This document shows, in pieces, positions 19,935 to 51,260 of a stretch of 64,000 nt of DNA; positions within the stretch are counted from its first letter, which is position 1; each line of letters begins with the position of its first letter. Made by a program: the position numbers and the translations under genes. Origin of the DNA: Eledone cirrhosa (Eukaryota); assembly GCA_964016885.1 (NCBI GenBank), contig OZ024751.1:29450001-29514000 (forward strand). The letters run 5' to 3'. The notes beneath the pieces are model-generated. The model was not told where the DNA came from, ran no database searches, and saw only the letters and a program-made list of their open reading frames with translations.

Positions 19935-20710
19935 GGGCATAGAATAAAGAATGCAAATGCAAAAGATATTGTTGACAATTAGTCTTTTACCTTAGATTTA
20001 TTTAAATGTCCTTAATTTTCGAGATAATATCTCTTCTTCGGAAGGAAGTAAAGCGGTTAAACCAGTGTTCTAAATAGCTTGCCAAGTCATGCTGTCAGCC
20101 ACCTAATAGAATATTAGTCTACGACTTCATTTATACCTTAAACGTGGTTTTGTCTTTGTGTGTAATTGTTTTTACCGCTCCAATTAATGACGTTTTATCT
20201 TCGTTTTTATCCGTTCTTTGCCAAGGAACGTTTCCACGAACCAAAGTAACGTCTTCGTGTCTTCCTTCGGTTGCAACGTTTTTTGAAATGTTCACTTCTG
20301 CGTTCACAGATTGATTTTTTTAAAAAATATTTACTTCTGCGTTCACAGATTGATTTTTTTAGTTTCAGAAGGGTGAAAGCAGCGATTCTTTGCTTAAACT
20401 TTAATCTGTTATTTTAATAAATATTTGTATATATATATATATATATATATCCAAAGTTGGCAGAAAGATGATTTCTAGCACAAAATTTGATTATATTCAC
20501 AATGGTGTGAATTTAACCTAATTTGGTGTGTGTGTATGTATATATATATATTATAGAGATCCCGTTAAGGGTGAAAGCAGCGATTCTTTGCTTAAACTTT
20601 AATCTGTTATTTTAATAAATATTTGCTCTACGTTTCTTATATATTTGATATATATTTATCCTTATCGAGCCCTCTTTGGATTTTAGTCTTCAAATTTATT
20701 ATTATTACTA
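19935..20710 (+). mobile_element. Probable Penelope-like terminal-repeat sequence with two partial copies of a CAGAAGA-core hammerhead-like motif (20345-20409, 20557-20608)
   Basis: GGGTGAAAGCAGCGATTCTTTGCTTAAACTTTAATCTGTT also occurs at 25.3, 26.85, 48.7 and 50.9 kb; upstream flank recurs at 51.1 kb; always adjacent to (TA)n. Confidence 0.6.
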
Positions 20711-20879
20711 TTATTATTATTATTATTATTATTATTACTATATATATATATATATGCTTTGCTGTTGCTTTTAAATGTACTTATATTTTGAATTATATTA
20801 TTTGGTATGGTATGAGTCTCATTTATGGTATAAAGTTATCCCTTGCATGTATTAATGTTGAAACTTATGACAAAATGTA

Positions 20880-20968
20880 AATTCTTGAGGATATGTAGAC
20901 CGAGAGACAAATGCCTCATTTGTGTCGTGGTATGGCCCGTTGTTATACATTGGAACATATGTAGGATT
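20880..20968 (+). ncRNA. Degenerate type I hammerhead motif with long stem II
   Basis: AATTC-TTGAGGA-[ATGTA...TACAT enclosing hairpin GAGACAAATG/CATTTGTGTC]-GGAA-CATATG-TA-GGATT; two core substitutions. Confidence 0.5.
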
Positions 20969-21377
20969 AAAATAATGTTTTTGGTAAACTTGGTTATTCT
21001 CTCTCCATTTATTGAATATATATATATATATATATATATATATATATATATATATATATATACATATATATACACACATATGCTGTAAAGTGGTTGGGAT
21101 TAATAAGGGTGAACAAAAGGTTGGGAGGACCTTTTAGTTGTGTCAAAGATATGACAGCCTCTTTAATACTGGTAGAACATGGAACCATATGTAAACAAGA
21201 TGTGAACCTTAAGCCTGGACAAGTTTCATTTGCCATAGCCACAATTCAAACCAAGCTTTGTGAGTAAAATTAGTTGGATAGAACCTATTTAGAAGCCTGT
21301 TGGATGGAGTGTAGCTGTCATGGAAATGGCTAGTCTTGTCTCATAATGTGTTATGTCGAATTTGCCCAAGAACTATA

Positions 21378-21606
21378 TTAACCCTTTAGCATTTATATTA
21401 CTCTATATTTACTATTATATTTTCACAGTAAAGGCTTTACCTCACATAATTATCTCACATAATATCGAATCTATGAGATTTTGATATTATTTATTTTGAG
21501 AACAATACTTTAACATCAATATGAGTGGCCATTTACAGCCAGTTTGAAGAGAAAGAGGTAATATAATCCTAGCCGGATACAGCCAGTTCAAATGCGAAAA
21601 GGTTAA
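21378..21606 (+). mobile_element. piggyBac-like MITE
   Basis: TTAA-CCCTTTAGCATTTA left end and degenerate right end AAATGCGAAAAGG-TTAA; homologous copies at 30.7, 52.5 and 55.3 kb. Confidence 0.82.
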
Positions 21607-22244
21607 GGGTATGCATGCTTGTGGAATTCCCAGCTCTTTGCACATTTTAATTTCATGAATATACCATTGTGTTAATCAAATAACTGGAAAAACACACCGT
21701 GGAAACTGGTGAAAGTCCATTTAGTTCTAGATGAATATCACTCTGAATTCAGTGAGAAAAGATGCACAAATTGTAAGAAATGTAAAGTTTTAGCTATTCT
21801 CTGACCATCATCAAAGGTTCATTTTTCTTTTCACATTCACTGGACTGCTTAAACAGATTTTACATTTCCTAACAAAAGTGTAAAACATATGTGTTACTTC
21901 TCAGTTAAAATAATGGACTTGACATGTCAACCTTATATGGTCTGTTAGGTTTTATCCATATCAAACAATCCAAAGTAGTTTCTTTACTAAACATTTCATG
22001 TGCATTACAACAATGAAAGTGCTTAAAACCTTTTGTTCTGATAATTATAAAACTTTTTGTTTTCTCGTTATTTTAATTAGTGTCATACATTATGTAGAGG
22101 CCAAATAGCTAAGTGAATAAATTGTCTGATTACTGCTGATTCTTGAATCCTAATTTTACACCTTCTCAGGTTGTATTTCTGGGTAGGACTTACACTTGAC
22201 TACATATGTCTGACGAAATACATATCAAATAATTTTATGGCATG

Positions 22245-22520
22245 ACGGTGCATGTCTTAGTGTTTAGAGTGTTGAGCTGAGGATCATAAGGTTGTGAGTT
22301 CAATTTCTGGACTAGGTGTCACATTGTGTCCTTGAGCAAGGCACTTTATTTCACATTCTTTCAGTCCACCCTCAGTTAACAAAAATGAGTTGTACCTGTA
22401 ATTCATCAGGGCCGGAATTGTCACATACTGTCTCATGCTGAATCTCCTTTAGAACTACTTGAAGGGTGCACATGTCTTAGGAACGCTCAGCCATTTGCAC
22501 ATCAACTGGAGCACCTGTTA
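22245..22520 (+). mobile_element. Old tRNA/CORE-type SINE (family C body)
   Basis: tRNA-like head, TGTGTCCTTGAGCAAGGCACTT CORE-like box; body related to 8545-8705 (-) and 21330-21375. Confidence 0.7.
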
Positions 22521-48607: not shown

Positions 48608-49574
48608 ATTGTATATGATATAATATGTATATAATATAATATATATATATATATATATATATATATATATCAGAAGAGCTCGTTTTAGTGTGAAAGCAGA
48701 AGTTGTTTGCGTAAACTTTTAATCTGTGCTTATAATAATAATGTGTGTCTGTGTGTGTGTGTGTCTGTGTGTGTGTGTGTGTGTGTGTGTGTGTGTGTGT
48801 GTCTGTGTGTGTGTGAGTATCAGAAATACATTGGCCAAACATTATAAGAGTATTAGAAAAGAAAGACAAATATAAAAAAAAAGATATATTGACAAAAATA
48901 TTTTGGATTGCTTACTTGATTGCCTCCTGATTCTTCTCTAGAGCTTTGCTAAACATGCCTGTGTGTGTGTGTGTATATATATATATATATATATAATTAT
49001 GTTGATGATGATGATAATGATGATATTATATATTGTATATTATATATACATAACTATATTATATATATATATATACATCTATATATATACATATATATAT
49101 ATATATATATATTATATATATATTATATATATATATATATATATATATATATATATATATATAGAGAGAGAGAGAGAGAGAGAGAGAGAAAGAGAGTAAG
49201 AGAGTAAGAGAGAATGTGAATCATATCTTGAGGAAGAAGTCTGATTCGCTCCACATACATTCTCAAATATAACATGATATGTTGAATATACTGCAGTATA
49301 TTATTCATATTTTAAGAGTGATTAGATTCCTTTGGGGGTTGATAAGCCTTCTTCTTGGTCTCATTATGTTGGTCTGGAACTAAATAGAGCAATTCAGAGC
49401 AAGTCTTCAGAGACCAAGATAGAACTCTCTGAAAATACCAAGTCTTACACTTTGTCACTTCAGTCTAGTTCATTGTTTCGCCTAGAATATGGAACACAGT
49501 AATAAAGTGCTACAAAGGAACACTAGTTGTTATAATGAAACTAATAAATTAGTATTAAATACATATAGAATACG

Positions 49575-49915
49575 AATAAATATCAGTTCTGTATGAGAAA
49601 GACATGGTTACTTGACCTGGGCCTATCTCACAACAAGATAACTTGTCTAAGCCATACCAGCATGGAAACATGGACGTTAAACAGTGATGTTGATGATGAT
49701 GATGATGATATATATATATCATAATCACTGCTTAATGTCCATTTTTCCATTCTAGGATGGGTTAGATGAGTTGTCCCGTTGTGAGATAGGCCAAGTCAGG
49801 TGACCATGTCTTGCTTATACTGAACTGATTTTGGCAATGGTTTTTACAGTTGGATGACTTCCCTAACACCAACAACATTTACTGTAAGTACTTGGGGCTT
49901 TTTGATGTGACACCT
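49575..49915. mobile_element. Two SINE B-related 3' portions arranged tail-to-tail
   Basis: 49584-49690 (+) is an imperfect reverse complement of 49723-49828 (-). Confidence 0.8.
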
Positions 49916-50408
49916 ACACAACCAAATTATATATATATATTCAATATAGAAATGGTTTCTACAGGACTAGAGCTGTTTCATTCGGAGGAAATCATCATAT
50001 ATGTCGACAGTCGATCGACAAGTTACAAGAAGTCATTCGTTTAATGACCAAGGAAACAATTTTTCCATTGGTATTTCTAATTACTAATACTATCTGTCGG
50101 TCACAAATCCAGGCACCAGGAGCAAAGCAAAATAAAGTGTCTTGCTGAAGGACATGACACAGCAGCTGGTCTGAGAATCGCATTCCCAACCTCGCAATTG
50201 CAAATCCAATTCTCTAACAACTCAGCCACGTGCCTTCACAAATGTGTGTGTGTGTTTATATATTTGCATATATATATATTTATATAATATATTTATGTAT
50301 ATATATATATATATATATATATGTAGGAGGTGAGTTTTATTGTAGTACAATAAAGCAATGCAGATATCGGATAAGAAGCACTCTACAGTTTGTAGGACTG
50401 GAGTATAC

Positions 50409-50732
50409 ATAATATAAGATCAAAAGATGGTTAAAGGAGTTCCATGTATTTTATTATGCGCATTTCAAAAACAAACATCATCATGCAACAATATTTGTGT
50501 TTTCATCAGATAAAACAGGAGAACATGATATGAAGGCTAAAAACACTTGTGGATAGTGCAGTTATATGTTGATTTAAAACTGCACTATCCACAAGTGTTT
50601 TTAGCCTTCATATCATGTTCTCCTGTTTTATCTGATGAAAACACAAATATTGTTGCATGATGATGTTTGTTTTTGAAATGCGCATAATAAAATACATGGA
50701 ACTCCTTTAACCATCTTTTGATCTTATATTAT
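50409..50732. mobile_element. Perfect 155-bp inverted repeat (14-nt loop) with a hammerhead motif in each arm
   Basis: 50409-50563 is the exact reverse complement of 50578-50732. Confidence 0.88.
50624..50694 (+). ncRNA. Type I hammerhead ribozyme motif (mirror copy 50447-50517, minus strand)
   Basis: TGTTTTAT-CTGATGA-AAACACAAATATTG..TGATGTTTGTTTTT-GAAA-TGCGCA-TA-ATAAAATA; intact core, long stem II, palindromic stem III. Confidence 0.82.
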
Positions 50733-50779
50733 ATATATATATATATATATATATAAATATAATATATATATATATATGT

Positions 50780-51260
50780 TATATATAGTAATAGCAATAA
50801 ATGTGAAGACTAAAATCCAAAGAGGGCTCGATAAGTATAAATATATATCAGATATATAAGAACCGTAGACCAAATATTTATTAAAATAACAGATTAAAGT
50901 TTAAGCAAAGAATCGCTGTTTTCACCCTTAACTGGATCTTCTTATGGGTGAAAACAGCGATTCTTTGCTTAAACTTTAATCTGTTATTTTAATAAATATA
51001 TGTTATATATATAATATATAAAATATATATATATATATATTAAATATATATAATATATATAATATATTTATATATATATATATATATATATATATATATA
51101 TATATATATATATAATATATTAACGGGATCTTCTGAAACCAAAAAAGTCAATCTGTGAACACAGAAGTGAATATTTCAAAAAACGTTGCAACGGAAAGAA
51201 GACAGGAAGACGATACTTATCGCGCCCTCTTTGGATTGTAGTCTTCAAATTTATTATTAC
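50780..51260. mobile_element. Rearranged fragments of the CAGAAGA-core element, including a 54-bp perfect inverted repeat
   Basis: Arms 50874-50927 and 50946-50999; further pieces at 51121-51214 (-) and 51215-51260 (+) homologous to 20.25-20.71 kb. Confidence 0.75.

Follow-up and report, generated by a model that had tools for sequence, protein, structure and literature searches.

Can a hammerhead ribozyme do without the uridine at position 4 of its core? U4 ranks among the bases held to be essential, and surveys for the motif rely on CUGA. The question is raised by a 64,000-nt stretch of Eledone cirrhosa DNA (contig OZ024751.1, positions 29,450,001 to 29,514,000; hereafter the window), in which a preliminary description had pieced together, from broken copies, a repeated hammerhead-like motif with an adenine at position 4 (A4). 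As judged from sequence comparisons, the A4 motif is real, family-wide and under constraint, and it was not found in the searched literature. The fragments in the window come from the broken ends of a Hydra-type Penelope-like element (PLE) of very high copy number, and we lean towards reading their motif as a slow or protein-assisted type I hammerhead that is predicted to cut after CUU.

Host element and position 4 across the genome

The route from the motif to its host element runs through a locus (L025) in which a decayed frame begins downstream of the motif. The reverse transcriptase (RT) part of this frame, used as a query, yielded 35,818 candidates in the genome, 150 of which were scored, and 16 of these lie in open frames of exactly 713 codons. 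The linked RT/GIY-YIG frame that the preliminary description had proposed to look for was thus found, on the same strand as the motif. At 13 loci around long frames the motif has the orientation of the frame, both in the 5′ repeat, where it precedes the start codon by about 200 nt, and in the 3′ repeat, about 0.9 kb past the stop codon. Two clean cases have direct repeats spaced 3,243 and 3,259 nt apart, which gives a unit of about 3.25 kb. Inverted 5′ copies are frequent among the frame-bearing loci, in a pseudo-long terminal repeat arrangement. Twelve intact frames are mutually 96–99% identical, and the family is young and prolific.

The encoded protein carries RWR (in L048) or CWR (in L049 and L120), DKT at residue 115, YRDD and a GIY-YIG-like motif, followed by CxCX5C at residue 564, CxxC at 662 and CxH at 690; CCHH was not seen by eye. 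Its predicted structure (pLDDT 91.7) has telomerase RT as the best fold match (E = 1.4e-8), while a Pfam search gave no real match and PDB sequence searches also gave the protein no name. The traits listed for the Hydra clade in PMC8557442 are RWK, DKG changed to DKT, a CxCX5C linker, CxxC and CxH near the nuclease end, and no CCHH. The clade assignment follows from these protein motifs, and since it rests on motifs and not on an RT tree we call the element Hydra-type. Further traits of the clade are present: (TA)n targets, two 3′ ends with an optional tail, and inverted 5′-truncated copies. The 3′ end of inserted copies lies 20–29 nt after U17 in 31 of 67 and 110–119 nt after it in 15 of 67, with (TA)n there. 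The element departs from the clade description in the A4 core of its repeat hammerhead and in its unit length of 3.25 kb, as against generally less than 3 kb, both of them descriptive traits of the clade. Homologues of the protein were found at 38–56% identity. In evenly spaced stretches totalling 590 kb a profile search detected 24 fragments, or approximately 120,000 by extrapolation to the 3.0-Gb genome; the short copies are truncated at varied points and are not tandem monomers. There was no RNA dataset among the public sequencing runs listed as carrying the element.

The genome-wide consensus at position 4 is A, and a U4 consensus, which the preliminary description had named as the outcome that would speak against a variant core, did not appear. 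Exact matches to a 30-nt core carry A4 in 18,366 of 18,547 cases and any other base in 181, with no match to the reversed pattern, so that the motif is far more frequent than chance would allow; 100 listed non-A copies divide into 39 G, 36 T and 25 C. A relaxed pattern returned 33,425 A4 and 1,282 U4 matches. When copies were found through the protein, a route blind to position 4, A stood there in 16 of 16 readable cases and in 22 of 22 at the loci around long frames. Three lineages were compared, with 30 old and 30 intermediate copies drawn by the upstream flank alone and 31 young copies taken from protein-bearing loci; left out were L280 (motif deleted), L306 (no motif downstream) and L462 (a duplicate of L283). 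Among copies with a letter at position 4, A is present in 31 of 31 young, 28 of 29 old and 28 of 29 intermediate copies, and when older copies were collected with a pattern free at positions 4 and 7, A stood in 94 of the 100 listed (3 T, 2 G, 1 C). A4 is, by these counts, fixed in the family.

The 1,282 relaxed U4 matches were considered as a possible U4 subfamily and rejected. All 30 that were read lack the 5′ side of stem I, 27 being head-to-head inversion junctions and three truncation junctions; inversion junctions mimic U4 because TTCAGAA reads TTCTGAA on the opposite strand. U4 matches that run from stem I to the cut site number only 120 genome-wide, and of the 100 listed the majority resemble the young form with point mutations. 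A cluster of nine listed U4 matches on one contig proved to be a duplicated single insertion (six of the nine were read, with shared flanks 91–94% identical); the segment (L464–L469; G000:C24, 7.4–18.2 Mb) is duplicated at least nine times and bears the same truncated copy with U at position 4 and C at position 7. An old copy with U4 (L117) and three more are isolated and differ from one another in loop 2, and a U4 motif at first taken for that of a sister family turned out to come from an unrelated, DKG-bearing PLE. The lack of a U4 subfamily is worth remarking, since reversion to U needs only a single change. An artefact of assembly is ruled out by the copy number, by the occurrence on both strands and by contigs from public runs. 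In four public runs labelled as other organisms (of 20 element-containing runs) no other letter appears at position 4; only two of the four have a contig bridging the site by 31 letters per side and three are of low depth, perhaps carry-over, which makes them weak evidence on host range. RNA editing was dismissed as the source of the A/U difference, as A-to-I editing yields a G-like base and not U.

Separately, about a thousand inversion junctions fall in the core near-palindrome TTC(A/T)GAA, one arm of which then reads CUGAAGA (L081–L110); A4 may make this near-palindrome a preferred point of strand switching.

Anatomy and constraint of the motif

Complete natural copies elsewhere in the genome have the same motif that had been reconstructed from fragments in the window, and the sequence is compatible with the proposed type I layout and a predicted cut after CUU. 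C3, G5, A6, G8, A9, G12, A13 and A14 are the majority letters in all three lineages, as is U17, and the 15.1–16.1 pair is A–U in 64 of the 66 rows with letters there; N7 varies, being A in the young and intermediate lineages and U in the old. The motif lacks the U4 of a canonical type I hammerhead, and because it fails that definition it is filed as a variant. The G10.1–C11.1 closing pair is missing as well, and a U·U flanks a three-pair stem II. This arrangement is common among the Hydra rows of PMC8557442 (File S2), and a U10.1–U11.1 mismatch has been described as tolerated (PMC3088659). A4 is the sole real departure, the U-flanked stem II and U17 being ordinary for the Hydra clade.

Stem I comprises 4 + 9 pairs around an internal loop, stem III five pairs, and loop 3 is 7 nt long. 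Loop 2 keeps its first G and its last A between lineages, as the internal loop keeps several of its U, and the length of loop 2 varies among older copies; these conserved loop bases may fit the known tertiary contact between stem I and loop 2. Stem III had been described as holding its pairing while its loop varies. The stem is indeed conserved, but this is conservation and not covariation. The variant escapes CUGA patterns and Rfam, as had been foreseen: among six Rfam matches at E ≤ 10 for a complete copy there is no hammerhead family, and there is none among the 150 listed of 323 matches for the whole window.

Constraint was assessed by counting columns that differ between lineages. When 28 old copies are set against 31 young ones under a strict fixed-difference rule, none of the 54 core and stem columns differs (0/12 core, 0/2 flanking U, 0/22 proximal stem and 0/18 distal stem), compared with 7 of 21 loop columns, or 8 of 22 with N7 included (p = 1.7e-5 against core and stems), and 35 of 110 flank columns (p = 1.1e-7). 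Taken by themselves and set against loops and flanks, the 14 unpaired junction columns give p = 0.011, and under a looser rule a single column of the 54 differs, at a CpG site. The third, intermediate lineage (29 loci) likewise shows 0 of 54 core and stem differences from both old and young copies; L446, which lacks the motif, was kept in this comparison, and L277 and L434 are query loci that were first found through the core pattern. The differences are confined to N7, the internal loop and loops 2 and 3, with none in paired or core columns. Among the junction bases N7 alone has changed: it is U in 25 of the 28 old copies readable at that position and A in 31 of 31 young ones. G8, G12 and the cut site are the same in the three lineages. 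Since the loops differ between lineages, replacement of the motif as a whole does not account for this constancy. In a working satellite hammerhead it is also N7 that takes most of the core changes (PMC2837043), and the pattern seen here is the one reported for that ribozyme and expected of a working hammerhead.

This pattern bears directly on two readings in which the RNA would not matter. The preliminary description had named a dead lineage as the alternative to a functional variant, that is, a ribozyme inactive since U4 became A and carried neutrally by a successful element. Low activity of CUGA mutants (PMC9901934) and the spread of PLEs that have no hammerhead (PMC8557442) would fit such a history; against it, 0 of 54 core and stem columns changed while 43 of 132 loop and flank columns did, and the result was repeated in the third lineage. 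A drifting dead relic is unlikely on these counts; it is largely refuted and receives the least credence of all the readings weighed here. A second reading places the constraint on DNA or plain sequence (an internal promoter, or an endonuclease or RT recognition site), with the hammerhead as an overlapping relic. PLE terminal repeats do hold promoters (PMC6765202), the PLE tail is recognized by the endonuclease (PMC11167929), and no compensatory pair change backs the stems. A DNA element has no reason, however, to track an RNA fold so closely as to confine changes to the internal loop, N7 and loops 2 and 3, with the length of loop 2 also free among older copies, and we regard this second reading as improbable.

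Cleavage or fold alone

The proposal of a natural core variant stands with regard to A4, which is genome-wide, and to the host frame, which is linked; that the RNA is an active ribozyme is a prediction from its sequence. In the reading that we favor with some reserve, the terminal-repeat hammerhead with A at position 4 would still fold as type I, with the contact between the stem I internal loop and loop 2 offsetting the lost U-turn base, and the constancy of core and stems would reflect selection on transposing master RNAs. The RNA of the element would be cut after CUU, slowly or only with the element's own protein bound, and cuts in two successive repeats would release unit-length RNA from tandem or read-through transcripts. 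With uncut or re-joined RNA as template, reverse transcription would begin past the cut site, at a distance of 25–30 or about 115 nt as given by the two observed 3′ ends, and for that reason a slow ribozyme would cost the element little. Natural core variants, U4C and the U10.1–U11.1 mismatch included, can remain active (PMC3088659), PLE hammerheads are often slow (PMC4209133), and one of them has been described that needs its protein in order to cut (PMC11167929).

Several observations weigh against cleavage. In a saturation screen all single mutants of the CUGA turn had low activity, and rescue came only from a C3–G8 swap (PMC9901934); in the crystal structure the A6–N7 phosphate contacts U4 (PMC3088659). 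A lizard PLE inserted normally in vitro with a dead hammerhead (PMC11167929), and Naiad PLEs thrive without canonical hammerheads (PMC8557442). In the alignment 91.8% of cells pair, a value that falls off when the register is slid, yet 48 of 500 shuffles reach the covariation score, and RNAalifold on the aligned copies returned no structure. The hammerhead is not the lowest-energy fold (z = −0.63), the predicted probability of the three-way junction is about 0.001, and A4 lifts a competing C3–G12 pairing from 0.02 to 0.40. Junctions of inserted copies show no sharp 5′ peak at the predicted cut among 43 loci from the first 100 of 4,706 rows: five of these start at the predicted cut and nine at an AT-rich spot in loop 3, as placed by eye. 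A free site would stay unchanged between the old and young lineages with a probability of 0.67, so that selection on A4 itself is unsupported, and the conserved bases all have structural roles too, so that conservation cannot separate folding from catalysis. Two of these lines can be read with caution. Two canonical U4 motifs of the same genome likewise miss the hammerhead fold in prediction, which makes fold prediction a weak test, and AT-rich microhomology blurs the positions of 5′ junctions.

The main rival is a hammerhead fold that does not cleave and is kept for binding of the RT/endonuclease or for placing the start of reverse transcription, A4 acting as an off-switch that protects the template. 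A fold that matters in three dimensions would be expected to leave the same pattern of constraint; inserted copies end, at either 3′ position, beyond the cut site, so the templates were uncut or re-joined; cleavage is dispensable for insertion of the lizard element in vitro (PMC11167929) and CUGA mutants are weak (PMC9901934); A4 is predicted to favor a helix that hides G12–A14; and no lineage of U4 revertants has spread. Such a fold should, on the other hand, free some of the catalytic and cut-site bases (G8, G12, U17), of which none changed in three lineages, and the canonical hammerheads of Hydra elements, too, are located close inside the 3′ end (PMC8557442), so that downstream ends are no mark of uncut RNA. 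We hold a non-cleaving fold to be possible, though on the doubtful side.

Cleavage and an off-state could also be combined. According to prediction, A4 permits a five-pair helix with the U-G12-A13-A14-A15.1 strand, and in a more speculative model, which we consider rather unlikely, A4 would be a selected switch that pairs with the U before G12 and locks G12–A14 in an off helix until the protein of the element opens it, after which cutting would proceed at a useful rate. At the other extreme, A4 might be fully tolerated in a fast monomeric ribozyme whose long stem III and extended stem I compensate for the lost U-turn base. The five-pair stem III and 4 + 9-pair stem I are indeed unlike the minimal PLE hammerheads that need dimers, and PLE hammerheads with a stable stem III can be fast monomers (PMC4209133). 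The CUGA mutant data (PMC9901934), the competing folds, a stem II of only three pairs closed by U·U and the CUU site all speak against it, and we think a fast monomer very unlikely.

Known hammerheads, the window copies and significance

Published Hydra-clade PLEs have type I hammerheads at the same place in the terminal repeat (for example Hydra-1_aJap, Penelope-5_HM and Hydra-1_oBim; PMC8557442, File S2), and several Hydra rows share with the A4 family an extra U after A9, a U before G12, a short stem II, a real stem III and U17. U4 is present in each of the 26 Hydra rows of that file, in contrast to A4 here; their loop 3 is 1–3 nt long, as against 7 nt, and stem I of the A4 family is extended by the second, 9-pair helix. 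The motif of Hydra-1_oBim is a different one and its protein, as compared by eye, is related yet distinct; two motif words and one peptide word of the A4 family are absent from the PMC8557442 supplement in the form available. Natural core variants on record include U4C in a viroid, U3–A8, A6C, A6a, U13a, U15.1–A16.1 and U10.1–U11.1 (PMC3088659, PMC7151607), and U3–A8 is also found in Schistosoma PLEs (PMC4209133). Like the A4 family, these variants show a single core departure in an otherwise complete motif; no purine at position 4 is among those named in the extracts of PMC3088659, and U4C is a single viroid variant, whereas A4 is fixed in at least 33,425 matches and three lineages.

The lizard Poseidon element PAc (PMC11167929) likewise has a hammerhead in its repeat, two downstream starts of reverse transcription and an optional tail; its tail is 30–40 nt long and its motif overlaps the start codon, in contrast to a tail of approximately 85–90 nt and a motif about 200 nt before the start codon in the A4 family, and the accessible part of the paper mentions no change at position 4. 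Non-LTR retrozymes (bioRxiv 10.64898/2026.07.22.740005) share the type I hammerhead, the many dispersed copies and a PLE connection; they are tandem repeats without a frame, unlike the autonomous A4 family with its 713-codon frame and 3.25-kb unit, whose short copies are truncations. Neither a natural U4A hammerhead nor an account of the A4 family was found in the literature searched, which covered few subscription papers, and a loose A4 pattern gave 121 matches in viral contigs, none with all three stems.

With a descriptor free at position 4, the 590-kb sample contains 67 motifs and its reversed sequence none; nine belong to the A4 family and all have A, and the other 58 have U in 57 cases and C in one. 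These type I hammerhead-like motifs amount to about one per 9 kb and come from a dozen or more families (L218–L276), and the genome may hold several hundred thousand of them. The nearest other family tied to a motif (53% identity over 340 residues) has U4 with a U3–A8 swap. It is a high-copy Hydra-type family with a long stem II, a six-pair stem III and a GUC site (L427:2950-3050, G000:C3 near 235,119,000; also L241, L029, L081 and L229); its N7 is T, C, G or A among copies, its motif folds as a hammerhead (z = −2.21), and the link to the frame comes from one locus. Metagenome relatives at about 40% identity were found at seven loci, and the four that reach the 3′ motif are all U4, with a motif like that of the Hydra-1_aMil row. 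By parsimony, A4 most likely arose after the split from the 53%-identity family and before the three lineages parted. Another Hydra-type family, at about 48% identity, has no recognizable motif downstream in the two copies read (L428:3745-6180 and L431) and may have lost its hammerhead or may carry another core variant. Elsewhere in the genome, L111 and L112 (G000:C1:97366500-97382000) form a tandem PLE array with a unit of about 4.2 kb, in which a 474-codon frame lies upstream, the RT is of the DKG type and the hammerhead is canonical and minimal. L128:151-1084 is a retrozyme-like tandem repeat whose 311-bp units each contain a canonical hammerhead with a palindromic stem III.

All fragments that had been noticed in the window were recovered, and they align to complete natural copies elsewhere in the genome (Table 1). 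No copy in the window is complete: that at 20345 lacks 12 nt and the rest are broken off. Position 4 is A in all four window copies that retain C3 and position 4, as the preliminary description had read it. No coding part of the PLE was found in the window.

Table 1. Copies of the A4 element in the window, with their motif-bearing fragments
Feature	Position	Strand	Motif-bearing fragment	Remarks
3′ end of young-lineage copy, 3′ untranslated region (UTR) and motif	20099..20434	+	20345-20409	ends in (TA)n; short duplication of first stem I strand at 20306; C3 20366, A4 20367; 12-nt deletion spanning A9 and stem II
Copy 5′-truncated within core	20557..20712	+	20557-20712	C3 and position 4 lost; retains stem II, GAAA, stem III, CUU and the long "tail" end
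Copy truncated immediately after position 3	25232..25346	+	25270-25346	short inverted tail piece at 25232-25260, 5′ of the motif part
Copy truncated within stem I	26814..26896	-	26814-26896	C3 26893, A4 26892; core and stems II and III intact; (TA)n flanks on both sides
Decayed copy, older-lineage-like	48670..48738	+	48670-48738	about 80% identical to young unit; C3 48671, A4 48672
Copy truncated at core, long tail present	50785..50942	-	50785-50942	one arm of head-to-head inversion
Inverted partner of the 50785..50942 copy	50942..51012	+	50942-51012	spans stem II to short end
Copy with upstream flank and full 5′ side of stem I	51120..51218	-	51120-51218	C3 51135, A4 51134; interrupted in loop 2 by (TA)n
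Short inverted tail piece	51216..51262	+		at 5′ junction of the 51120..51218 copy

Canonical CUGA hammerhead-like motifs of other repeat families also occur in the window, at 50632 (+), 50509 (−), 45599 (−), 30105 (+) and 29854 (−); they include two inverted pairs, of which the 30105/29854 pair failed the descriptor. Between 35200 and 37400 lie broken frames that resemble, by eye, an endonuclease/RT long interspersed nuclear element of another class.

That a purine has stayed fixed at position 4 while a very successful element went through at least three rounds of amplification is surprising whether or not the RNA cuts. A test of activity is cheap: it takes a 77-nt RNA, a control that differs by one base and the intact protein frame. 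Cleavage would oblige the accepted core to widen, and some PLE families said to lack hammerheads would merit a new search. If it does not cleave despite its conserved core and stems, the family would be a natural separation of fold from catalysis, with a bearing on what PLE hammerheads do. Should A4 be a switch, the core would represent a new natural class, PLE transposition would include a timing step by a ribozyme under the control of a protein, and CUGA-based surveys would be missing whole high-copy ribozyme families, such as the nine of 67 motifs in the 590-kb sample.

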